Shown: in pieces, positions 3,470 through 59,397 of the stretch | Numbering within the stretch: position 1 is the stretch's first letter | Layout: every line of letters begins with the position of its first letter | Source of the DNA: Gammaproteobacteria bacterium | GTDB taxonomy: Bacteria > Pseudomonadota > Gammaproteobacteria > UBA4575 | Direction: 5' to 3' | Assembly: GCA_965221955.1 (NCBI GenBank) | Contig: CBDCTA010000029.1 | Span: 604,601-668,600, forward strand | DNA length: 64,000 nucleotides | Program-made: the position numbers and the translations under genes | Notes under the pieces: generated by a model | What the model saw: only the letters and a program-made list of their open reading frames with translations | Databases searched by the model: none | Told to the model about the DNA's origin: nothing

Positions 3470-4519
3470 ATGCATAAAAACATCTCAGAAATAGTCAATG
3501 AGTTTTCAGAGTGGAATTTATTTATCGATCAGCATGGTCCTGACAATTTGATTACAGGGATGCCAGACATTAAGCAATGTGGTGAAGGAGATTTAGTTTT
3601 TGTTGAAAGTGAAGACTATGTAGCAGATGTTTTAAAGCGTAAACCCGCTGCAGTGATCACTACCGAAAAGCTTGTCGATCAGTTTACAGCTCTAACAAAT
3701 TCATCCATTTTAATCAGTAAAAATGCGAAATTAGCGCAAGCATTGTTAAGACAAAAATATATGGATCGTAATTTGCGTGAAAATGGGTGGCCACAAATTC
3801 ATGATTCAGCAGTGATACATGATACAGCGACACTCAAGGTCAATGTTACAGTCGGACCCAATGCAGTCATCTCAAAAAATGCTGTCTTAGGTGAAAATAG
3901 TATAGTAATGGCAAATGCTGTTATCGAAGAAAGCGTGTCCATCGGTTCTGATTCTGTAATTTATCCAAATGCAGTGATTTCGTATGAATGTGTCATTGGA
4001 GATCGCTGTATTGTGATGTCTGGTGCGGTAATAGGTGCTGAGGGATTTGGCTTTGCGCAAGACCAAGATCAGAAAAGTTATCGCGTTCCACAGCTTGGCA
4101 ACGTAGTGATCGGAGATGATGTTGTAATTGGTGCAAACTGCACAATTGATCGCGCAACTTTCAATAGCACAAAAATAGGTAACGGTTGTAAGTTTGATAA
4201 CTTAATTCACATCGCACACAACGTTGAAGTGGGTGAGGATGCGCTCATGGCAGCTCAATGTGGTGTGGCGGGTTCTACTAAAATTGGTAAGCGTGTACGT
4301 TTTGGCGGTCAAACTGGAACCTATGATCATGTTGAAATTGGTGACGATACAATATTTGTTCATCGTTCAGCGGTGATACATGATGTTAATGAATCAGGCA
4401 TCTATGCGGGTTTGCCACCAATTCCTTTGCGTCAATGGTCTAAATCAACTGCTGTTTTCAAGCAACTTGAGAACTTGAAGAAAACGGTAGATGTGCTTGC
4501 AAAAGATAAATCCAAATAA
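3470..4519 (+). CDS. lpxD: UDP-3-O-(3-hydroxyacyl)glucosamine N-acyltransferase (LpxD-like, outside the usual lpx operon)
   Basis: Hexapeptide repeats, GAEGFGF, IGANCTIDR, DNLIHIAHNV. Confidence 0.85.
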   Translation: MHKNISEIVNEFSEWNLFIDQHGPDNLITGMPDIKQCGEGDLVFVESEDYVADVLKRKPAAVITTEKLVDQFTALTNSSILISKNAKLAQALLRQKYMDRNLRENGWPQIHDSAVIHDTATLKVNVTVGPNAVISKNAVLGENSIVMANAVIEESVSIGSDSVIYPNAVISYECVIGDRCIVMSGAVIGAEGFGFAQDQDQKSYRVPQLGNVVIGDDVVIGANCTIDRATFNSTKIGNGCKFDNLIHIAHNVEVGEDALMAAQCGVAGSTKIGKRVRFGGQTGTYDHVEIGDDTIFVHRSAVIHDVNESGIYAGLPPIPLRQWSKSTAVFKQLENLKKTVDVLAKDKSK

Positions 4520-4539
4520 GCTTATTGATATTAATATTG

Positions 4540-4950
4540 ATGGGTACTTTATTTGAAAAGTTTGATAGTCAATATCAAGTGCAACAGCTAGCAGAAGAGT
4601 TTTACGATGTAATGGATCGTGATACTAATGCAAAAGAATTGCGTAACTTGCACCCTGACAATCTTTTTTTTACTAAAAAAATTCTTTATCGGTTTCTCGT
4701 GCATTGGTCTGGAGGGCCAGAAATTTTTAATGCAGACCTTGTCAATTCAACTTGGCTTGAATTGCGGCACAGGAATGTAGAGCTAAACGAATTGCATCAA
4801 AAGCAATGGTTGTATTGTATGGAAACTGCTATGCAGAACCTAGAGTTTAAGGAAGAATTAAGAAAAGAATGTCTTGCTAGATTTTCGTGTTTGATCAATT
4901 CGATGCTAGCAATTAGAAAGGGCAAGGACGATGTGCAGGCATGGACGTAG
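4540..4950 (+). CDS. Group II truncated hemoglobin (trHbO-like)
   Basis: FYDVMD, FL..W.GGP, L.LRH, WLYCM..AM motifs. Confidence 0.8.
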   Translation: MGTLFEKFDSQYQVQQLAEEFYDVMDRDTNAKELRNLHPDNLFFTKKILYRFLVHWSGGPEIFNADLVNSTWLELRHRNVELNELHQKQWLYCMETAMQNLEFKEELRKECLARFSCLINSMLAIRKGKDDVQAWT

Positions 4951-5038
4951 GAAGTGCAGAAAATGTAGGAGCAATTTTCTGCCGACCCAAAGTGTGAGCC
5001 CAGGGATGGGCGAATATGAGGTGCAACATGGAGGTTGC
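4935..5038 (+). repeat. Cluster of REP-like short hairpins (CA[T/G]GGA[T/G]G core)
   Basis: GCAGAAAAT..ATTTTCTGC, GCCCAGGGATGGGC (4998), GCAACATGGAGGTTGC (5023); related units at 17541-17583 and 38852-38946. Confidence 0.65.
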
Positions 5039-5064
5039 TTCAGATTCAATATTTCTTTTAATAG

Positions 5065-5094
5065 AATGACTGCTTACTACCCAAAGCGGACATT
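5065..5094. repeat. 30-bp palindromic site 1 (11-8-11)
   Basis: AATGACTGCTT-ACTACCCA-AAGCGGACATT. Confidence 0.85.
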
Positions 5095-5109
5095 AATAAT
5101 ATTTTAATA

Positions 5110-5559
5110 ATGACTGTTGAACCACTAGTTAACCATAAGGATGTGATACCAACACTTGTTAAGTGGTACGAGTCGGAATGGGAATCTTATTATGGGGTTG
5201 ATGGGCCAGGAGATGCGCAAACAGATCTTATCTCACGATGCAATGACACAATGCCTATTGGTTTAATAGCAATAGAAAATGGAGGTGTTCTTGGAACTGT
5301 TGCAATAGATAAAGATGTAACTACAAACCTTACGCCATCTATAGTTGGGTTAATGGTAGCACCAGAGTATCGACGTCGAGGCATTGCTACTTCATTGATA
5401 AATACAGCTGAAAAATGGGCAAGCCAGTTTGGTTTTCGCAAGCTCTATATTAGTACATCAACATTAAGCAATTTATTCCAAAAATTAGGTTGGTCTCAAA
5501 TCGATGAGGTAGAGTTTCTTAATGCGGAACAAGGTTCTGTCTATATGAGAGAATTGTAA
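5110..5559 (+). CDS. GNAT-family N-acetyltransferase (cassette-like)
   Basis: LMVAPEYRRRGIATSLI acetyl-CoA motif A; F..LGW C-terminal motif. Confidence 0.9.
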   Translation: MTVEPLVNHKDVIPTLVKWYESEWESYYGVDGPGDAQTDLISRCNDTMPIGLIAIENGGVLGTVAIDKDVTTNLTPSIVGLMVAPEYRRRGIATSLINTAEKWASQFGFRKLYISTSTLSNLFQKLGWSQIDEVEFLNAEQGSVYMREL

Positions 5560-5574
5560 AATAGGCTTAAGTCG

Positions 5575-5604
5575 AATGGGCGCTTTTGGCCGAAAGCAGA
5601 CATA
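5575..5604. repeat. 30-bp palindromic site 2 (11-8-11)
   Basis: AATGGGCGCTT-TTGGCCGA-AAGCAGACATA. Confidence 0.85.
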
Positions 5605-5636
5605 ATTTACTTACAGTAATCTTGTAAATTCATGAT

Positions 5637-6152
5637 ATGAAAAAAAGGTATCTCTACTCATTATTATTTGGAGTGCCTGGCTTTTTTGTTTCACTATTAA
5701 TTGCTTTTGTGATCTTTGGTATTGCAGCTGGGTTTCTTTGGCTTTATGTTTTTGGTGACGACCCTTGGCCTTCATCGACCGAAAAAATTTTACCTATTCT
5801 GTTTATTCTATCCTTCTTGGGGCTGTGGAGTGCTTCAATTATTGTAGGGTTTGTGATCGGGAAAAACTTAGAAGAAGAATCGGAGTTAAACAAGCAACAT
5901 ATTATGGTGTCAGTCGGTGTCACCATTATACCCATTGTATTAATGATCCTTTATCAGTGGCGTGTAGGAAATATCGGGCCAAAATCAGATAGCGTCTTAT
6001 GTAGTGAATATTGCAGAGATAAAGGATATTCTGGAAGTGGAATGCCTGCGCTAAATTCAGGTGAGAAAAGTTGTAGTTGTTTCGATAGTCATGGTAAAGA
6101 AGTCATTAAAACTCCTATGGAAGAGGTCGTTATTGAACGATCTGTAAATTAA
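5637..6152 (+). CDS. Hypothetical membrane protein, 3 TM helices plus a Cys-rich C-terminal domain (cassette-like)
   Basis: Three hydrophobic segments; CSEYC...CSC. Confidence 0.75.
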   Translation: MKKRYLYSLLFGVPGFFVSLLIAFVIFGIAAGFLWLYVFGDDPWPSSTEKILPILFILSFLGLWSASIIVGFVIGKNLEEESELNKQHIMVSVGVTIIPIVLMILYQWRVGNIGPKSDSVLCSEYCRDKGYSGSGMPALNSGEKSCSCFDSHGKEVIKTPMEEVVIERSVN

Positions 6153-6155
6153 CTG

Positions 6156-6185
6156 AACGTCCGTATTTGGTCGAAAGCGGGCATT
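6156..6185. repeat. 30-bp palindromic site 3 (11-8-11)
   Basis: AACGTCCGTAT-TTGGTCGA-AAGCGGGCATT; abuts the anmK stop codon. Confidence 0.85.
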
Positions 6186-7297
6186 TATTTAGGCTCATAT
6201 AGTATTCCTAATCTAACCGCCTTATCCGCCCCTGTAACACTTGGAATATTTCCTGGTTTGTTCTCGATATGTCGTTTGGCTAACCACGAAAAGGCCATTG
6301 CCTCCATCCATTTAGAAGGAACATCATAATTACTGGTTGGTTGTAGAGTAAATTTTTCTAATATATTTTCTAAACGTTCAACAAGAAATTTATTTTCACT
6401 TCCGCCGCCACAAAGCAAAATCTTTTTAGTTTGTGAGCACCATGCTGCAATGCTGTCTGCAATGGTATAAACCGTTAAGTCTAATAAGGTTGCTTGTACA
6501 TCTTCAGGTGTAAGTGAAGAATTATGAGTATCAATATAGCGTTGAAGCCATTCTAGGTTGAAATGTTCGCGTCCTGTTGATTTAGGAGGCAATGCTGAAA
6601 AGTAATTATCCTGCAACATTTGTTCAAGTAACTTTGTGTTTATCTTGCCACTTTTTGCCCAAACTCCATCTTTATCAAATGCTTGGTTTAAATGTTTCTG
6701 TGTCCAAGCATCCATGAGCGTGTTTGCAGGGCCTGTATCAAAACCAATAATGGGGTCAGTTTTGTTTTGAGGCAATTTAGTAATGTTTGCAATGCCGCCT
6801 AAGTTAATGACTACTCGTTCTTCGTCTGTACTTTGTAAAACTTCTGCATGGTAAGCACAGGCAAGTGGTGCACCTTCTCCACCAGCATCAATATCGGCTT
6901 GACGGAAATTACCTATGGTTGGGATTCCTGAAACGTTAGCAATTAGTTGAGGGTTGCCTATTTGAATAGAAACTGGAGGAATGCCTTTCGGATCATGAAA
7001 TACAGTTTGACCATGACTGCCTACTGCAACCACTTGTTCTGTATTAATGCTTGCTTGGTTTAGTAATTGCTGAATGGCTTCACATGATGATTGGGCAAAT
7101 TCTTTATCAAGTAGGTCAATTTCTTTTGGGTGTTGGCGAGCAGAAATTAAAGCATTAATGTCATTTCGAAGTTGTGCATCTATTGAATGACTATACTTTG
7201 AAACAACATGAGTGTTGGATTGTTCAAAATCCATCAATACCGCGTCGATGGCATCAACGCTGGTGCCAGACATGAGTCCGATAAAATACTCAGACAT
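6185..7297 (-). CDS. anmK: Anhydro-N-acetylmuramic acid kinase
   Basis: IGLMSGTSVDAID, GSHGQT, GGEGAPL, FDTGPAN, PPKSTGRE. Confidence 0.97.
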   Translation of the reverse strand: MSEYFIGLMSGTSVDAIDAVLMDFEQSNTHVVSKYSHSIDAQLRNDINALISARQHPKEIDLLDKEFAQSSCEAIQQLLNQASINTEQVVAVGSHGQTVFHDPKGIPPVSIQIGNPQLIANVSGIPTIGNFRQADIDAGGEGAPLACAYHAEVLQSTDEERVVINLGGIANITKLPQNKTDPIIGFDTGPANTLMDAWTQKHLNQAFDKDGVWAKSGKINTKLLEQMLQDNYFSALPPKSTGREHFNLEWLQRYIDTHNSSLTPEDVQATLLDLTVYTIADSIAAWCSQTKKILLCGGGSENKFLVERLENILEKFTLQPTSNYDVPSKWMEAMAFSWLAKRHIENKPGNIPSVTGADKAVRLGILYEPK

Positions 7298-37040: not shown

Positions 37041-38381
37041 TTAACCGGAAAGTGTTTCGCCTCGTCCGATAGCATAGTATTTAAAACCAAGTTGTTGCAT
37101 TAATCCGGGTTCATATAGGTTGCGTCCATCAAAAACGACCGGATGTGAAAGTGATTTTTTTATCGCCTCAAAATTAGGGCTTTTAAATTCACTCCATTCA
37201 GTAACTAACGCGAGGGCATCTGCATTTTCGAGGGTTTCATCTTTCTCATCACATAGCGTAAGTGCAGGATGATCAGCATAGATGCGTCTACACTCATCCA
37301 TCGCAACAGGGTCATAAGCTTGTACAGTTGCACCTGCTTCCCATAAAGCTTCCATTAATACTCGACTAGAAGCTTCGCGCATGTCGTCGGTGTTTGGTTT
37401 GAAAGCAAGTCCCCAAAGCGCAATGACTTTATTTTTTAGATTGCCATTGAAATAGTTATTGATTTTATTAAACAGCACTTGTTTTTGATTTTGGTTAACT
37501 TGATCAACTGCAGCAACCAGTGTGGGTTCATAATCAGCATCTTTAGCGATATGCTGAAGTGCTTTTACGTCTTTAGGAAAACAAGAACCTCCATAACCAC
37601 AGCCCGGATAAATAAATTGATAACCGATACGTGGATCGGAACCAATACCTAAGCGAACTTCTTCAATGTCAGCACCTAAACGCTCAGCAATATTTGCTAG
37701 TTCGTTCATAAAACTAATTTTAGTTGCTAAAATAGCGTTGGCGGCATACTTGGTAAGTTCTGCAGAAGCTGGTTCCATGAAATGCATGCGATCACGACTA
37801 CGGTTGAAGGGTGCGTAAAGCGCACGCATTAGTTCTGCTGTGCGTGGATTTTTTTCAACTCCTACGATAATACGATCTGGCTTCATAAAGTCTTCGATCG
37901 CAGCGCCTTCTTTTAAAAATTCAGGGTTTGAGACGACGTCATATTCTAACGATACATCTCTTTTTTCTAATTCGCCTCTAACAGCATTGGAAACTTTTTC
38001 AGCAGTACCAACCGGAACTGTGGATTTATTGACAATAATTTTATATTCATCCATGCCTTGGCCGATGGTCTCAGCCACTTTTAATACGTGTTGTAAATCA
38101 GCGGAGCCATCTTCATCGGGCGGTGTGCCGACAGCAATAAATTGAAACAAGCCGTGTTGAATACCTTCTTCGGCATCTAGGGTAAAATCAATTCGTGTTG
38201 CTTCCACGTTAGTTTGAATGAGTTCTTGCAATCCTGGCTCATGGATTGGAACAATGCATTGCTTAAGCTTTTTAATTCTATCTGCATCGATATCCACGCA
38301 TAGAACATTATTGCCAACTTGAGCTAAACAAGCTGCAGTTACTAAGCCTACATAGCCAGAACCATAAATTGTTACATTCAT
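37041..38381 (-). CDS. ugd: UDP-glucose 6-dehydrogenase
   Basis: [35 protein letters not shown]. Confidence 0.96.
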
Positions 38382-38538
38382 TTTTGAGAGAGCTATTGAT
38401 TAAAAAATTTACCTGTAGCCAATGAGTAATTGTTGGCAGGATTCTGAATGCTAACGTAATCGTTTTACGGACGCTTAACAATGCATTTAGCTACCAGCGT
38501 GTAATTTTTTAGTTTGAATTACCTACTCGATCACAATA

Positions 38539-38570
38539 TTGACAGCTAACTGTAGAGTCGAGCAAAATGC
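38539..38570 (+). promoter_or_regulatory. Probable promoter for tRNA-Tyr
   Basis: TTGACA at 38539 followed by CAAAAT about 18 bp later. Confidence 0.5.
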
Positions 38571-38578
38571 TTTGCCCT

Positions 38579-38663
38579 GGAGGGGTGGCCGAGTGGTTAA
38601 AGGCGACGGACTGTAAATCCGTTCTCTCTGAGTACGCTGGTTCGAATCCAGCCCCCTCCACCA
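38579..38663 (+). tRNA. tRNA-Tyr(GUA)
   Basis: Loop CTGTAAA, long variable arm, CCA end. Confidence 0.97.
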
Positions 38664-38717
38664 TTTTTATCACATACCAAGACATAGGAAATCTATGTCT
38701 TGGTATGTGATAAAAAT
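38663..38717. repeat. Perfect 25-bp inverted repeat directly after tRNA-Tyr
   Basis: ATTTTTATCACATACCAAGACATAG-GAAAT-CTATGTCTTGGTATGTGATAAAAAT. Confidence 0.9.
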
Positions 38718-38729
38718 ATTTAGAGATGG

Positions 38730-38959
38730 TACGGTTTGAACCTGGTATCGCAGGGCGATCATTAGTTTGCGTGTAATACGCCACACGCAAGGGTGGTTCG
38801 ACAAATTGGCAGGAAAGCTAATTTGCACAGACGAAGTCTGCCTGCAAGCGAGCGACATGGATGTAGCGAGTAAAATTTGTTGGGAACAAATTTGAACGTT
38901 GCGGTAAAACTGCGACGGCCTGAAGGGTGAAGGGCAAGGATAGCCCGGAGTAATCCAGC
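38730..38959 (+). repeat. tRNA-linked structured repeat
   Basis: GGTTCGA...AATCCAGC enclosing two related units (AAATT..GGAA..AATTTG, tetraloop hairpin, CA.GGAT hairpin, GAGTAA). Confidence 0.65.
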
Positions 38960-38980
38960 TTTTGTTTTTTCTATTCTTAC

Positions 38981-39054
<74 letters not shown>

Positions 39055-39366
39055 ACGGTTTGCAGGAAAAATACGATATGCAAGCCTGCTAAGGTCTACA
39101 TGAAAAGCTCTCAAGGCCTGTGCTATGTCTAATTTTTTTGGGCCTACACCAAAATACCTGCACGATCTTTTTTTATACTAGAGATTTATTGGTTTGCAGG
39201 TGTGGAAGTAAATAATATCTCATCTCAATTTCGGCGCACGAATTTAGCGCATACAAAAGTTAAAAAGCTTGTCATTCAAATTACCAACCTAGCTACCCCA
39301 ATCGCACTACTAAAATAGTGCTGCAACAGATAATTTCAACGTTTACAATGCGCTCAATATTTATTT

Positions 39367-39442
39367 GCCCACATAGCTCAGTTGGTAGAGCACATCCATG
39401 GTAAGGATGAGGTCGTCAGTTCAATTCTGACTGTGGGCTCCA
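39367..39442 (+). tRNA. tRNA-Thr(GGU)
   Basis: Loop ATGGTAA, CCA end, directly upstream of tuf. Confidence 0.96.
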
Positions 39443-39497
39443 TTAAAAATTTGTTAGTGAATTGGCTACTGAATCGAGGTCATAGAGGTAAAAGAAA

Positions 39498-40688
39498 ATG
39501 TCGAAAGAGAAGTTTGAGCGTAATAAACCGCATGTGAATGTAGGCACGATTGGTCACGTGGATCATGGTAAGACCACGTTAACGGCGGCGTTAACCAAAG
39601 TCATGGGCGAGACCCACGGAGGCGAATTCAAAGCCTATGACCAAATCGACAACGCTCCTGAAGAACGTGAACGCGGCATCACCATTGCCACCGCCCACGT
39701 CGAATACGAAAGCCCCAATCGACACTACGCCCACGTCGACTGTCCCGGACACGCCGACTACGTAAAGAACATGATCACCGGTGCGGCCCAAATGGACGGC
39801 GCCATCCTTGTCGTGAGTGCTGCAGACGGTCCCATGCCTCAAACGCGTGAACACATTCTACTCGCCAGACAAGTAGGCGTACCCTACATCCTCGTCTACA
39901 TGAACAAAGCCGACCAAGTCGACGACGCCGAACTCCTCGAACTCGTTGAAATGGAAATTCGTGACCTTCTTTCTACCTACGAATTCCCAGGCGACGACAC
40001 TCCCATCGTAACCGGATCCGCACTAAAGGCACTTGAAGGCGATACATCAGATATCGGTATTCCCTCGATCGTCAAACTCGTAGAAGAAATGGACGCCTTT
40101 ATTCCCGAACCCGAACGCGCCATCGACGGCGACTTCATCATGCCCGTCGAAGACGTCTTCTCCATCTCAGGACGCGGTACCGTAGTAACCGGTCGTATCG
40201 AACGTGGCATCATCAACGTCGGTGACGAAATCGAAATCGTTGGCATCAAAGACACCACCAGCACCACCTGTACCGGAGTCGAAATGTTCAGAAAACTACT
40301 CGACCAAGGCCAAGCCGGAGACAACGTCGGCGTACTACTACGTGGCACCAAACGCGACGAAGTCGAACGTGGCCAAGTCCTATGTAAACCTGGCAGCATC
40401 ACCCCACACACCAAATTCGAAGCCGAAGTCTACATCCTCAGCAAAGAAGAAGGCGGACGCCATACCCCATTCTTCAATGGCTATCGTCCCCAGTTCTACT
40501 TCAGAACCACCGACGTAACCGGCGCATGTGAACTTCCCGAAGGCACCGAAATGGTCATGCCGGGTGACAACGTCAAGATGACCGTCTCCATGATCGCCCC
40601 GATTGCGATGGACGAAGGCTTACGCTTTGCGATTCGAGAAGGTGGACGTACGGTCGGTGCAGGAGTCGTAGCCAAGATTATAGAATAA
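39498..40688 (+). CDS. tuf: Elongation factor Tu
   Basis: [20 protein letters not shown]. Confidence 0.99.
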
Positions 40689-55008: not shown

Positions 55009-58000
55009 ATGAATTTATTTTCAAAATTCAAATTAGTTGGAATTCTTCTCATGCTTTGTGGTGGCAATGTATTTGCTGCTGATTTACTTGTTCCTTCTCA
55101 ATATTCAACGATTCAAGCTGCAATTAATGCAGCAAACACTGGGGATCGAGTTCTAGTAGCGCCTGGAACGTATATCGAAAATATTAATTTTAATGGGAAG
55201 GGGATAGTTGTGACCAGCTCACAAGGACCTAACATAACAGTAATAGATGGAAATCAAGCAGGTCCTGTCGTTACATTTGATTCTGATGAAGATAATAGTT
55301 CTAGTATTTCAGGGTTTACTATAAGAAATGGGAGAGCATCACCTGAGAATACTGGTGGAGGAGTAGTAATTGAGCGAGCATCACCGATTGTTGAAAATAA
55401 CATTATTACTGAGAATATTTTTGGTGGCAGGGCGCTAGCGGTATATATAGATAGTGGCGCTGCTATTTTTCGCAATAATCGAGTAATCGACAATATCGGT
55501 TTCATATCTTCAGGAAACTTTGGCGGGGCAATTACAGTCTTTGGGAGCTCTGGTGCAGAAATAACAAATAATATTATAGTTGGAAATTCAATTTCTAATG
55601 CAGGAGTTTTAAGCGGAGCGATATCCCTTGTAACACTTTCGTCTTTAAAAGTAGAAGGTAACTATATTGCAGATAATACATCTAATATAGCAGGCGGTGG
55701 AATTGCTGCTTGGGGAAGTGACTACCAAATCATTAATAATATTATTGTTAGAAATAATGCAATATTTAAAGGTGGTGGTATTTACGTTAGAGGTTTTACT
55801 AATCCCTCAGGTAATCAACCACTAATTTCAAATAATACATTAATTGATAATACTGCAATGATGGGAAGTCAGATCCATATTGAACCTGGAAATAGTAATG
55901 ATATTGAACCAGCTATTTTAAATAATATTCTTTTTCACACTGACAACGTTGTATCGGTATATTGTGAAGACCCTAATAATTATTGGTCACTGCTGTTATT
56001 TAATAATAACGTTTTTAGTAATTCGGGAAGTTTATATGGTGGAAATTGTACTGATCAGACAGGTTTAAACGGAAATATTTCAACAGACCCGCTGTTTGCA
56101 AACACTTTGAATGATGATTTTCATCTAACAGCGTCTTCAGCCAGTATTGATTCTGGTGATAATACTAACCCTAATTTGCCCGTTACTGATTTTGATGGGA
56201 GCGCTAGAGTGTTAGATGGTAACAGTGACACTATAGTTACAATCGACCAAGGTGCATATGAATTTAATCCTAATGGTTTGCTTAAATTTGGATCAAGCGG
56301 TTTTAATGTTAATGAAAATTCATCAACTATAACAATCGACGTTTGTCGTATTGGTGGAACAACAGGTGATGTTTCTGCAACGTTTTCTACATCAGACGGA
56401 ACCGCAATTGAAGGTGTACATTATGTAATATCTACTGGATCCATCATGTTTTCTGATGGAGAATCTGGATGTAAAACATTCGCTGTAACCATTATTGATA
56501 ATCAACTATTAAGCCAAGATGTTACGTTCAATGTTGGGCTGGATAATCCTATCGGAGGGGCAACCATATCAACCCAAAGTAATGTAGAGGTCAAAATTAT
56601 TGATAATGAAGTAGATTTATCCCTATCAAAAGATACTAGCCAAACTGATGTGTCTGTAGGTGAAGACATTACTTATGACATGATTGTTTCGAACAATCAA
56701 ACATCGAATGCTCAAGATGTTGTAGTTACAGACATTCTTTCTTCTAGTCTTGATTTTGTATCTGCAACACCAAGTCAAGGTTCATGTAGTGGAACCACTA
56801 CTATTACATGTAATTTAGGTAATATCGTAGCTGGTGACTCTGCAACAATTACATTAGTAGTTACTGGTAATATAGCAGGGAGTATTGATAATACTGCAAA
56901 TGTTTCAGTCAATGGAAATGACATAGATGCGTCTAATAATAGTGATTCTGCTACTGTAACTGTTAATGCTCTCCCAGCAGCAGTCGAACTATTTCCTCTT
57001 ATTCCTGGCACTACATTTAATTATTTAGTTAATTCTTCGTTTCAAGAAACAGAAACTGTGTTACCACAAAGTGCTTTTAATGGTGTTCAAGCATTTGGTG
57101 TAAGAGATAATGAAGGTGATATTGAATATTACACCAATGATGTAAACGGGTTACTGGATTATGGGTCGTTTGATACTGTTGATGGGCAGATAAGCACCGT
57201 TTCCCCTCCTGTTAAATTTTTAGAAGCACAACCTTTAATTGGTGAAGTGATTAATCAAACTGGAACATTTACTTTATTTGATCCAATCAATGGTTCATTT
57301 CCATTAGATTATACATTCTCATCAACAGTTCAAGGCCTTGAAACAATTACAGTTCCACTTGGTACATATGAAGCTTTAAAAGTTGATCTCTTTATAGAGG
57401 TAAGTGGATTTATTAACGGTGTTTTCGTAACTTCAACTCAAACAAGCTCATCGTGGTTAGCGCTTGGAATTGGAGAAATTCGTGCGGTTACAACTTTAGA
57501 TGGTGTTACAGATACAAGAGAACTTATTTCTATAGTTAAACCACCCCAAATCACCTCACCGACAGCGGGAAGCACGTTAAGTGGATCGAGCATGCAAATT
57601 GATTGGAATGCGAATGGTACCAGTCCTCAACAATGGGCCGTGACAGCAGGCCCGAGTGCGAACACGTATACATTTGGCAACTCTGGTGCGGTGCCGGGGA
57701 ATGCGAGTAGTGCGACATTTAATAGTTTTCCCACCAATGGTCAACCGGTGTTTATTCAACTATGGAACCAAGTGAATGGAATATGGAGTGTGGTCGATGA
57801 AATACAAGTGACAGCATTTAATGCACCGAGCATGGATCCTCAAATTACCAGTCCGACAGCGGGAAGCACGTTAAGTGGATCGAGCATGCAAATTGATTGG
57901 AATGCGAATGGTACCAGTCCTCAACAATGGGCCGTGACAGCAGGCCCGAGTGCGAACACGTATACATTTGGCAACTCTGGTGCGGTGCCGGGGAATGCGA

Positions 58001-59397
58001 GTAGTGCGACATTTAATAGTTTTCCCACCAATGGTCAACCGGTGTTTATTCAACTATGGAACCAAGTGAATGGAATATGGAGTGTGGTCGATGAAATACA
58101 AGTGACAGCATTTAATGCACCGAGCATGGATCCTCAAATTACCAGTCCGACAGCGGGAAGCACGTTAAGTGGATCGAGCATGCAAATTGATTGGAATGCG
58201 AATGGTACCAGTCCTCAACAATGGGCCGTGACAGCAGGCCCGAGTGCGAACACGTATACATTTGGCAACTCTGGTGCGGTGCCGGGGAATGCGAGTAGTG
58301 CGACATTTAATAGTTTTCCCACCAATGGTCAACCGGTGTTTATTCAACTATGGAACCAAGTGAATGGAATATGGAGTGTGGTCGATGAAATACAAGTGAC
58401 AGCATTTAATGCACCGAGCATGGATCCTCAAATTACCAGTCCGACAGCGGGAAGCACGTTAAGTGGATCGAGCATGCAAATTGATTGGAATGCGAATGGT
58501 ACCAGTCCTCAACAATGGGCCGTGACAGCAGGCCCGAGTGCGAACACGTATACATTTGGCAACTCTGGTGCGGTGCCGGGGAATGCGAGTAGTGCGACAT
58601 TTAATAGTTTTCCTACCAATGGGCAACCGGTGTTTATTCAACTATGGAACCAAGTGAATGGAATATGGAGTGTGGTCGATGAAATACAAGTGACAGCATT
58701 TAATGCACCGAGCATGGATCCTCAAATTACCAGTCCGACAGCGGGAAGCACGTTAAGTGGATCGAGCATGCAAATTGATTGGAATGCGAATGGTACCAGT
58801 CCTCAACAATGGGCCGTGACAGCAGGGCCGAGTGCGAACACGTATACATTTGGCAACTCTGGTGCGGTGCCGGGGAATGCGAGTAGTGCGACATTTAATA
58901 GTTTTCCTACCAATGGGCAACCGGTGTTTATTCAACTATGGAACCAAGTGAATGGAATATGGAGTGTGGTCGATGAAATACAAGTGACTGCAGATACATT
59001 ATTTATCGGTCAATTTAATGTGAGTGGCTTACAAACAGATACAGGTTGTCAAGATCCTGCTGATAATGGCACTTCGAGTTACACCGGCATATTTAATGTG
59101 GCAAGTCAATCTGGTAATTCTTTTGTTGGAACACTAAATATTCTAACAATTGATGGAGTACCTTTATTTGGCACAGGTGTTACAGCTAGTGGTCCATTTA
59201 CTGCAACAGTGAATCAAAATGTAAATGCGGTTGGTGACTATACGCTTAATGGACAACTAAATGGTGTTTTGATTGCGCAAAATCAAGGAACATTTAGTGG
59301 GAGTTTGAGTATCGATACACTTTCAATAAATTATGTAGGGATGGATACAGTCGGTGATACATGCTCTTCGTCAGGCTCATTCTCTGGAAGTCGTTAG
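55009..59397 (+). CDS. Large secreted multidomain surface protein (beta-helix, Calx-beta, DUF11, 5 tandem 98-aa repeats)
   Basis: Signal peptide; VPSQYSTIQAAI..A..GD.V.V.PGTY.ENI beta-helix start; IDQGAYE; Calx-beta-like T.DGTA..G..Y; DUF11 DLSLSK...TCNLG. Confidence 0.85.
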   Translation: MNLFSKFKLVGILLMLCGGNVFAADLLVPSQYSTIQAAINAANTGDRVLVAPGTYIENINFNGKGIVVTSSQGPNITVIDGNQAGPVVTFDSDEDNSSSISGFTIRNGRASPENTGGGVVIERASPIVENNIITENIFGGRALAVYIDSGAAIFRNNRVIDNIGFISSGNFGGAITVFGSSGAEITNNIIVGNSISNAGVLSGAISLVTLSSLKVEGNYIADNTSNIAGGGIAAWGSDYQIINNIIVRNNAIFKGGGIYVRGFTNPSGNQPLISNNTLIDNTAMMGSQIHIEPGNSNDIEPAILNNILFHTDNVVSVYCEDPNNYWSLLLFNNNVFSNSGSLYGGNCTDQTGLNGNISTDPLFANTLNDDFHLTASSASIDSGDNTNPNLPVTDFDGSARVLDGNSDTIVTIDQGAYEFNPNGLLKFGSSGFNVNENSSTITIDVCRIGGTTGDVSATFSTSDGTAIEGVHYVISTGSIMFSDGESGCKTFAVTIIDNQLLSQDVTFNVGLDNPIGGATISTQSNVEVKIIDNEVDLSLSKDTSQTDVSVGEDITYDMIVSNNQTSNAQDVVVTDILSSSLDFVSATPSQGSCSGTTTITCNLGNIVAGDSATITLVVTGNIAGSIDNTANVSVNGNDIDASNNSDSATVTVNALPAAVELFPLIPGTTFNYLVNSSFQETETVLPQSAFNGVQAFGVRDNEGDIEYYTNDVNGLLDYGSFDTVDGQISTVSPPVKFLEAQPLIGEVINQTGTFTLFDPINGSFPLDYTFSSTVQGLETITVPLGTYEALKVDLFIEVSGFINGVFVTSTQTSSSWLALGIGEIRAVTTLDGVTDTRELISIVKPPQITSPTAGSTLSGSSMQIDWNANGTSPQQWAVTAGPSANTYTFGNSGAVPGNASSATFNSFPTNGQPVFIQLWNQVNGIWSVVDEIQVTAFNAPSMDPQITSPTAGSTLSGSSMQIDWNANGTSPQQWAVTAGPSANTYTFGNSGAVPGNASSATFNSFPTNGQPVFIQLWNQVNGIWSVVDEIQVTAFNAPSMDPQITSPTAGSTLSGSSMQIDWNANGTSPQQWAVTAGPSANTYTFGNSGAVPGNASSATFNSFPTNGQPVFIQLWNQVNGIWSVVDEIQVTAFNAPSMDPQITSPTAGSTLSGSSMQIDWNANGTSPQQWAVTAGPSANTYTFGNSGAVPGNASSATFNSFPTNGQPVFIQLWNQVNGIWSVVDEIQVTAFNAPSMDPQITSPTAGSTLSGSSMQIDWNANGTSPQQWAVTAGPSANTYTFGNSGAVPGNASSATFNSFPTNGQPVFIQLWNQVNGIWSVVDEIQVTADTLFIGQFNVSGLQTDTGCQDPADNGTSSYTGIFNVASQSGNSFVGTLNILTIDGVPLFGTGVTASGPFTATVNQNVNAVGDYTLNGQLNGVLIAQNQGTFSGSLSIDTLSINYVGMDTVGDTCSSSGSFSGSR
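57544..58992 (+). repeat. Tandem repeat of 294 bp, ~4.9 near-identical copies
   Basis: Units start at 57544, 57838, 58132, 58426, 58720. Confidence 0.97.

Follow-up and report, generated by a model that had tools for sequence, protein, structure and literature searches.

The DNA analyzed here is a 64-kb window, i.e., the whole stretch C29:604601-668600, from a gammaproteobacterial genome assembly (2.69 Mb in 29 contigs, 38.6% GC, 96.6% complete, 4.3% contamination). Our subject is a mini-array located between a globin gene and the convergent core gene anmK, in which two single-gene units, one encoding a GNAT acetyltransferase and the other a Cys-rich membrane protein, are delimited by three 30-bp palindromic sites. 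The palindromes belong to a repeat family with two types of centre, referred to as A and B, and the same family bounds single accessory genes in much longer arrays elsewhere in this genome. By Pfam, the gene order across the region runs from an N-acetyl-gamma-glutamyl-phosphate-reductase-like semialdehyde dehydrogenase, DUF6776, bactofilin, and an ErpA-type Fe-S protein to the LpxD-like acyltransferase, the globin, the GNAT, a 171-amino-acid (aa) protein, the convergent AnmK, an M23 peptidase, and TyrS. The features in question are the following (window coordinates, with the evidence in brackets).

3470..4519, forward strand: LpxD-like hexapeptide acyltransferase gene, a flank outside the repeat system (Pfam Hexapep and LpxD; synteny)
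4525..4950, forward strand: bacterial-type globin gene, directly 5′ of the mini-array (Pfam Bac_globin)
4973..4992, forward strand: degenerate half palindrome, a B-type left arm plus a spacer ending in CCCAAAG (anchored comparison, 37 copies)
4993..5064, forward strand: GGA module plus short linker, with hairpins at 4998-5011 and 5023-5038 (37 selected copies)
5065..5094, forward strand: site 1, palindrome of type B that opens the GNAT unit on its 5′ side (RNA fold -8.8 kcal/mol, z -4.5)
5066..5107, forward strand: mini-open reading frame (mini-ORF) of 13 codons, its ATG within site 1 and its stop 2 nt ahead of the GNAT start (sequence reading)
5110..5559, forward strand: cargo of cassette 1, GNAT acetyltransferase (Pfam PF00583)
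5575..5604, forward strand: site 2, palindrome of type A that closes the GNAT unit on its 3′ side (RNA fold -6.0 kcal/mol, z 0)
5637..6152, forward strand: cargo of cassette 2, 171-aa Cys-rich membrane protein (Pfam: no family)
6156..6185, forward strand: site 3, an A-type palindrome closing the mini-array (RNA fold -9.5 kcal/mol, z -1.7)
6185..7297, reverse strand: anmK, convergent core gene forming the right flank (Pfam AnmK, 429 bits)

An earlier note made from the window sequence alone had described the mini-array, and its local anatomy was borne out throughout. The sites lie at 5065-5094, 5575-5604, and 6156-6185 and are each preceded by a G; the start-to-start spacings remeasured as 510 and 581 bp; the ORF list holds one co-oriented ORF per unit (5110-5559 and 5637-6152), with 15 and 32 bp ahead of the starts and 15 and 3 bp past the stops as read from the sequence; and site 3 touches the anmK stop codon, overlapping it by 1 nt. 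The GNAT identity of 5110-5559 and the AnmK identity of 6185-7297 (reverse strand) were upheld by Pfam. The degenerate pattern that the note had proposed for the sites matches four times in the window, i.e., the three sites plus site 1 on the opposite strand, while 100 shuffles gave a mean of 0.09 matches and none attained four. Contigs from two studies carry the GNAT and membrane protein genes as well as the junction of site 3 with anmK. An Rfam scan of window positions 4400-6400 with E values up to 10 returned no family beyond two chance-level matches.

Genome-wide, a strict pattern finds 150 palindromes, the site family thus amounting to about 150 copies in 2.69 Mb. The palindrome is 30 bp long, with 10-nt arms (11-nt consensus AATGTCCGCTT / AAGCGGACATT) flanking an asymmetric 10-nt centre that splits the family into type A (ATTGGCCGAA) and type B (AACGACCCAA). 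Both types occur in both orientations (A< 41, B< 40, B> 35, A> 34), and their spacers are roughly reverse complements of each other. Exact arm 9-mers fall within palindromes in 115 of 139 cases in this genome, and a reading of the arms as DNA uptake sequences was rejected because they are almost confined to palindromes. Twenty-six doublets of 89 to 113 bp have the order A - linker - B, with a linker of 43 or 53 nt containing the conserved GGTTGGAATC ... TAAAATG. The real repeat unit is this two-palindrome doublet of about 100 bp. Doublets fold as a single long imperfect hairpin (-25.5 kcal/mol, z -3.6, and -24.2 kcal/mol, z -2.3), in which the outer arms pair best (9.48 of 10 pairs, versus 7.5 to 7.8 for the degenerate inner arms). 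The window sites are degenerate lone members of this larger repeat: site 1 is a B palindrome whose linker is short, and each of the other two sites is a single A palindrome. Site 2 has neither a linker nor a B partner, and since its fold is no better than that of shuffled sequence (z 0), we take it to be a decayed copy.

Polarity, single-gene units, strain-variable arrays, breakpoints at or inside palindromes, and units shared between different neighbors are all seen around these repeats. B palindromes lie 5′ of a gene, 15 to 40 nt ahead of its start, and A palindromes lie 3′, 0 to 25 nt past the stop. Among the 63 palindrome-bounded intervals genome-wide with an ORF of at least 40 aa, 33 have the order B>ORF A>, compared with about 4 expected by chance, and from stop codon to palindrome there are 21 nt (median); placement relative to gene boundaries is hence nonrandom, as the earlier note had supposed. 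The larger arrays that it predicted also exist. Contig C5 carries 10 single ORFs of 53 to 234 aa, all on the same strand and parted by 11 doublets, and the C23 array has 23 palindromes over 12.4 kb, with its ORFs all on the other strand. Arrays range from 10 to about 20 units, and the palindromes lie between ORFs, i.e., are extragenic, throughout those mapped. Lone units elsewhere have linker plus B at the 5′ end and A at the 3′ end, matching the window layout. For the 103 ORFs within palindrome-bounded intervals, the median length is 105 aa; a membrane-like segment occurs in 46. Their Pfam assignments include M23 peptidase, Na+/H+ exchanger, TPR, HAD hydrolase, macro-domain, flavodoxin-like, globin, and a second GNAT. 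The globin, of the bacterial type, is a cassette in the C23 array (L121:907-1398, C23:10906-11397), and its paralog stands directly 5′ of the window mini-array (4525-4950).

The assembly joins two strains at several loci, which permits a comparison of haplotypes. Contigs C14 and C23 have flanks 99.0 to 99.5% identical around arrays of 4 kb and 12.4 kb, respectively; C10 and C29 have flanks 98.7 to 99.7% identical around arrays of 1.4 and 4 kb with zero cassettes in common. Palindromes are involved in four of five structural differences between haplotype contigs. At one junction, C14 reads palindrome, 1029 bp with a flavodoxin-like gene, palindrome, and C23 has a single palindrome. The latter is a hybrid: the left arm matches the first palindrome of C14, and the start of the spacer and the right flank match the second. 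The earlier note expected breakpoints in an 8-bp spacer; they do fall at or inside palindromes, but the crossover at the C14/C23 junction cannot be placed in the spacer. Cassettes are also shared between separate arrays, at 86% (C5/C26), 97% (C5/C11), and 78% (C5/C17) identity, and in all three pairs the similarity begins and ends at the outer palindrome edges. In two other species (G004 and G002), a macro-domain gene and its partner of 269 aa are enclosed as B>...A> beside different neighbors. Excised circles, which the note proposed to look for, were not detected in the sequences searched, those of four runs, all of them contigs. Apparent joints linking about 5094 with 5581, and one linking 5607 with 5065 across 40 inserted letters, had sides of 24 to 30 letters. 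The insert is the linker of a doublet at C23:21021, so that the joints reflect cross-mapping of other repeat copies and not circles.

Two further observations bear on strain variation. C25 matches window positions around 38124-40687 (C29:642724-645287) at 98.5 to 99.2%, a further sign of two co-assembled strains. The segment C26:76340-91280 versus C11:15913-20294 is strain variable (15 kb versus 4.4 kb) and probably represents an integrated element; among its contents is a serine recombinase frame of 544 aa (C26:86441-86899).

The erpA-anmK interval was examined in relatives by synteny. In 12 relatives further removed, the ErpA gene stands next to that of AnmK, in agreement with the contiguity that the earlier note had assumed, and the LpxD-like and globin genes lie between them only in this genus. 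The globin-anmK interval is different in every genus genome examined, its contents including an IS30-like transposase, MarR-like genes, and ORFs of 141 aa, 78 aa (membrane), and 478 aa. Neither cargo gene is stably syntenic, neither having been found at the related loci compared. Because the interval has no palindromes in several relatives, the spot appears variable for more than one reason. In a related metagenome-assembled genome (L015:6560-7840), a 386-aa IS30-like transposase gene, identified by sequence reading, splits a palindrome after anmK; with this gene between palindrome halves, the palindromes are also insertion targets.

Whole-genome searches of 40 relatives returned no homolog of the membrane protein ORF 5637-6152. 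The GNAT 5110-5559 had no match among the 14 genus genomes, and distant matches in only 2 of the 40, at other loci. Within this genome, the protein most similar to it (32% identity) is encoded by a cassette that lies between doublets of the C23 array, the largest one. The expectation that homologs of the cargo would be flanked by such sites held for two of the four GNAT loci compared, namely, the C23 paralog and that of G022, which has an A-type palindrome 3′ of the gene, but not for the two loci of G029, where one 28-mer passes a loose pattern of 3 mismatches per arm and looks like chance.

For the wider distribution, a pattern allowing up to 2 mismatches was used, the reversed control pattern giving 0 matches. 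The palindrome is present in all 14 genomes of the genus, in numbers from 1 to 174 per genome, 13 of them reaching 26 or more. Within the family, it was counted 93, 150, and 51 times in other genera and was not found in g3, g4, g5, and g10, four genera with small genomes; a second family has 26 copies. In a class sample of 300 genomes, matches were confined to those two families plus one further genome, and a phylum sample of 400 genomes yielded 19 others with 1 to 4 copies each, many with A- or B-like centres. In the second family (G038, 53% GC), the B>ORF A> order is kept around genes of 227 to 441 aa, as are both spacer types. Judging from the G038 layout, the palindromes and their polarity form the conserved core and the linker is lineage specific.

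Exact palindromes also occur in 71 IMG/VR contigs, 27 of them with A- or B-like centres where 1.3% would be expected at random, and in at least 120 metagenome contigs, with soil among the sources. In 80 of the latter, 70 centres are A- or B-like, GC content is 0.50 to 0.65, and 53 contigs have at least 2 copies. In high-GC soil contigs (L284 and others), ORF callers read the palindrome as short peptides such as MSALGQKRT and MSAFDPKRT, which adjoin paralogous periplasmic-binding-protein-like genes; peptides of this kind may inflate the counts of hypothetical proteins in soil genomes. Protein clusters around palindromes in viral and metagenome contigs were discarded as redundant copies of two phage families or a single-linkage artifact: a direct comparison of two members gave an E value of 1.6, and four members had no Pfam assignment. 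Two viral contigs with palindromes were also compared by megablast with phage and plasmid collections, without a match. The repeat is not described in the literature searched, supplementary repeat catalogues being outside its reach, and its 12- to 15-nt strings and peptide readings retrieved no paper except a Brucella primer table, the match being made by a GC clamp; a relationship to the Bru-RS repeats of Brucella is conceivable at most.

Two further features of the repeats concern expression. In full doublets, a mini-ORF spans the linker and B palindrome from a TTG 27 nt 5′ of the palindrome's ATG (e.g., L120:725-790). Its frame is open in 42 of 45 copies, compared with 10 and 3 for the other two frames. 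It is about 20 to 30 codons long, would encode a peptide approximating L-E-S-I-N-Y-K-F-K-M-T-A-N-D-P-K-R-T, has an AGGGGA-like, Shine-Dalgarno-like motif about 7 nt upstream, and ends close to the start of the next gene. The mini-ORF at 5066-5107 in the window is the counterpart of this frame, its translation being predicted from sequence. The other feature is a second repeat family, the GGA module, which precedes site 1 (4993-5064) and opens many mini-arrays. It is usually fused with a half palindrome, the joint falling at one set point, the boundary of spacer and right arm, as is also the case for the half palindrome at 4973..4992. In 37 selected copies from this genome, the module consists of two hairpins with A(N)GGA loops followed by CAGATTAAAGTTAGGT, and its stems show abundant compensatory change (e.g., AU 17, GC 9, and CG 6 at one pair). 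The module looks like a candidate CsrA-binding element, its loops resembling the CsrA consensus, and a CsrA gene is present in the genome (C2:164402). Together, the mini-ORF and the GGA hairpins suggest a putative built-in expression adaptor for newly acquired genes.

The reading that we favor, and to which we give about an even chance, is that the palindromes are repeats of the repetitive extragenic palindrome/bacterial interspersed mosaic element (REP/BIME) type that have become portable recombination sites and expression punctuation of accessory genes. Near-identical repeats flanking accessory genes would provide the portable sites, and genes would be inserted, deleted, and swapped there, for the most part through pairs of same-type copies in direct repeat. 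The simplest way to achieve this would be host homologous or slippage recombination acting on incoming or resident DNA. In this genus, the doublet would also punctuate expression, supplying a 3′ hairpin to one gene and the Shine-Dalgarno-like AGGGGA with a mini-ORF running into the start region of the next. In the window, the GNAT and membrane protein units may have been added between the globin gene and anmK, with their repeats now decaying. The anatomy expected of REP elements, i.e., short extragenic palindromes in high copy number with inverted doublets, is what was found (150 palindromes and 26 doublets), and a widespread family whose unit is a doublet fits REP/BIME-type elements as well as it does a dedicated capture system.

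A number of observations weigh against this reading. REP families normally accompany a RAYT (REP-associated tyrosine transposase) that is itself flanked by REPs. Searches for this Y1 transposase (PF01797) found 0 genes in this genome (96.6% complete), found them in only 1 of the 14 genus genomes, and found none in G019 or G038; around six RAYT-like genes of relatives, the nearest 2 kb or so are free of palindromes, and when RAYT-like proteins were searched by tblastn through 157 contigs that bear palindromes (1.0 Mb in all), 0 matches came back. With no association in the PF01797 searches or at the six loci, a REP-RAYT system proper was rejected. The linker has only weak promoter- and IHF-like motifs (1 of 12 with a tool; 9 of 25 and 3 of 25 with patterns), and in G038 one doublet has only 6 nt between A and B, the linker being almost absent. 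Homologous recombination alone cannot explain how unrelated genes gain flanking repeats. Finally, among the non-consensus arm cells of 180 distinct palindromes, only 33 of 493 are compensatory, the few such changes implying that the sequence itself is conserved beyond pairing, and the arm sequence is kept across hosts of 38 to 65% GC. Such conservation points to a sequence-specific protein partner, which would favor a dedicated recombinase.

A dedicated enzyme is the core of the strongest alternative, which we regard as possible though on the unlikely side: the palindromes or the folded doublet would be the sites of a sequence-specific enzyme (recombinase or transposase) of an unrecognized family, with its gene elsewhere in the genome and an action on gene units resembling that of IntI on attC, forming an integrase-independent cassette system that captures, excises, and reshuffles single genes, complete with a translation adaptor, in marine Gammaproteobacteria and soil bacteria. 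The arm-spacer-arm geometry speaks for it, as does the folded doublet, which resembles attC in its paired outer box, partly unpaired centre, degenerate inner box, and variable loop. So do the strict polarity, the retention of both spacer types in the second family at 53% GC, and the conservation in the palindromes of sequence rather than structure, unlike the covarying GGA module, which implies recognition by a protein. The patchy spread (none found in g3, g4, g5, and g10, and high numbers in others) is as for an accessory enzyme, the joining of the GGA module at one fixed position is like a recombination joint, and the C14/C23 polymorphism has two palindromes enclosing a segment in one haplotype and one palindrome in the other.

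No recombinase matching the palindromes was identified in the searches made, however. The tyrosine recombinases of this genome are XerC, XerD, and a P4-like integrase (C29:2613) that occurs in 2 of the 14 genus genomes; those of a complete genus genome with 94 palindromes (G010) are XerC, XerD, and one other integrase. IntI and Y1/RAYT were not found in this genome, nor were IS110, reverse transcriptase, or Cas1, and its one large serine recombinase lies in an unrelated island on C26. The earlier note had proposed a tyrosine recombinase next to the largest array; the only one there is the housekeeping XerD, recognized by xerD-dsbC synteny, and the adjacency is not conserved, palindromes lying near xerD in G000, G010, and G014 but not in G001, G019, or G011. 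Of that note's overall proposal, a non-integron cassette capture system with a recombinase acting in trans, the single-gene units and the non-attC sites stand, and the recombinase was not borne out. The lack of detected circles and a crossover that cannot be placed at a fixed nucleotide also tell against a dedicated enzyme, as does the mutual inversion of A and B, with which A x B recombination would invert a unit, not excise it.

The Xer machinery itself can be set aside. Inversely oriented boundary sites, a mark of Xer/dif modules, are indeed present in the B>gene A> order. The host dif candidate, ACTTCGCATAA-TATATA-TTATGTTAAAT at C4:59807 (reverse strand), has two palindromes about 5 kb away, and the palindrome arms bear no similarity to it, which corroborates the earlier statement that the sites lack XerC/D arms. 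Xer/dif was rejected because the XerD adjacency is not conserved and dif is unlike the palindromes.

It is improbable, in our view, that the palindromes are purely regulatory or structural hairpins (terminators, mRNA stabilizers, or operators for a DNA- or RNA-binding protein) with no role in gene gain or loss, the arrays varying from other causes. Their tight placement at the 3′ and 5′ ends of genes would suit such a function, the mini-ORF and GGA hairpins, with a CsrA gene in the genome, suggest posttranscriptional control, and the orthologous interval is variable even in relatives where it lacks palindromes. Yet only 1 of 22 palindromes in C5:600-6500 passes a terminator scan, on which ground the terminator reading was rejected; in the same stretch, promoter-like sites number 20 versus 25.5 expected from shuffles, i.e., no excess. 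That four of the five strain-level structural differences end in palindromes, and that duplicated units stop at palindrome edges, also argues against a purely regulatory role, which would moreover leave unaccounted for why unrelated accessory genes share the same flanks.

Integron integrases were sought with TIGR02249. The best match in this genome scores 83 bits against a cutoff of 265 and is XerD; IntI is likewise below the cutoff in all 13 genus genomes carrying 26 to 174 palindromes (3 of them complete), in G019 (150 palindromes), and in G038. True integron integrases were seen in two relatives, G015 (C29:6942-8018 in that assembly; L092) and G013 (C20:40615-41559), at 484 and 387 bits, that of G015 with small ORFs beside it on the opposite strand. 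There is no palindrome within 20 kb (G015) or 18 kb (G013) of these genes, and one of the two relatives has a single palindrome genome-wide. A hairpin of 57 to 141 nt after each co-oriented ORF, characteristic of integrons, is present here (doublets of 89 to 113 bp). The ends of attC follow the consensus RYYYAAC ... GTTRRRY, and an alignment of the 26 doublets shows no AAC...GTT end boxes in either orientation, as the earlier note had remarked for the window sites. An integron was rejected, as neither the IntI searches (this genome plus 40 relatives) nor the two IntI loci show a link. A classical integron relic, in which the doublets would be atypical attC sites that either outlived the loss of intI or are acted on by the IntI of another community member, is very improbable: small ORFs in one orientation, with an imperfect inverted repeat of 89 to 113 bp behind each, would fit it, and clusters of attC lacking integrases (CALINs) are common, half of them in genomes without IntI according to PMC4889954, but the 26 doublets lack the boxes, IntI was not found in the palindrome-rich genus genomes or G019 and lies far from palindromes in the two relatives that have it, and lone units bear half elements at both ends instead of a whole 3′ site.

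Two tandem repeats were seen apart from the palindromes. One, at window positions 57559-58992, has a 294-bp unit in 4.9 copies with 99% matches and also appears as self-matches; it is probably a repeat-domain protein. The other, at a contig end (C22:1-1926), is perfect, with a 339-bp period.

Integrons are the only well-understood builder of single-gene cassette arrays, and the origin of cassettes and the many attC clusters that have no integrase still call for an explanation. Across a whole bacterial family, a cassette-array organization with small accessory genes, a single repeat at each junction, and strain-dependent content is seen here on a different repeat and without an integron integrase. 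If host recombination on REP-like repeats suffices, this would be a simple and general route by which accessory genes become exchangeable modules; should a dedicated enzyme exist, it would represent gene-capture machinery of a new class, with a site defined to 30 bp.

Several known systems invite comparison. Like REP, BIME, and REPIN elements, the repeats described here are short imperfect palindromes, about 150 in number, that occur singly or as inverted doublets folding as one hairpin and are targeted by other insertion elements (here, the IS30-like split and the GGA-module joint). They differ in that 13 of the 14 genus genomes have no RAYT and the RAYT-like genes of relatives are not repeat flanked, in an arm sequence kept across families and GC contents, and in their strict polarity around single accessory genes within long, regular, strain-variable arrays. 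In Escherichia coli, the linker of BIME-1 (RIP, repetitive IHF-binding palindrome) binds IHF. The dRS3 repeats and intergenic mosaic elements (NIME) of Neisseria, Correia elements, and the enterobacterial repetitive intergenic consensus (ERIC) are intergenic mosaic repeats, with short inverted repeats around 8 to 10 nt, that are transcribed with their neighbors, affect expression, and serve as insertion targets. To our knowledge, none of these has been reported to delimit arrays of single accessory genes, and we know of no sequence kinship with the palindromes.

Integron cassettes are mostly promoterless and depend on the Pc promoter. A CALIN is a cluster of attC sites without a nearby integrase, as defined in PMC4889954. 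Integrons and CALINs share with the present arrays the small co-oriented ORFs, mostly of unknown function, the imperfect inverted repeat of about 100 bp belonging to each, and the strain-variable content. Unlike integrons, the arrays have no IntI and no AAC/GTT core, a 10-10-10 instead of an approximately 7-5-7 geometry, half elements at both ends of lone units, and a Shine-Dalgarno-like motif plus mini-ORF before the genes.

Acinetobacter has XerC/XerD-dependent dif modules (pdif). According to PMC6449649 and PMC13141974, these are discrete gene modules with short inverse arm-spacer-arm sites, alternate as C and D modules, are extensively shuffled, and move by a mechanism that is unsettled. 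They resemble our arrays in that two alternating kinds of module share sites, the kinds here being gene and linker modules. They differ in geometry (11-6-11 versus 10-10-10 here, with no likeness of the palindromes to their own host's dif) and in setting, the present repeats being chromosomal, in up to hundreds of copies, in uncultured marine Gammaproteobacteria and soil bacteria and not on Acinetobacter plasmids. REP/BIME elements, integrons with CALINs, and dif modules thus each fail at least one of the defining features tested, and each shares a part of the anatomy of the arrays built on this repeat.

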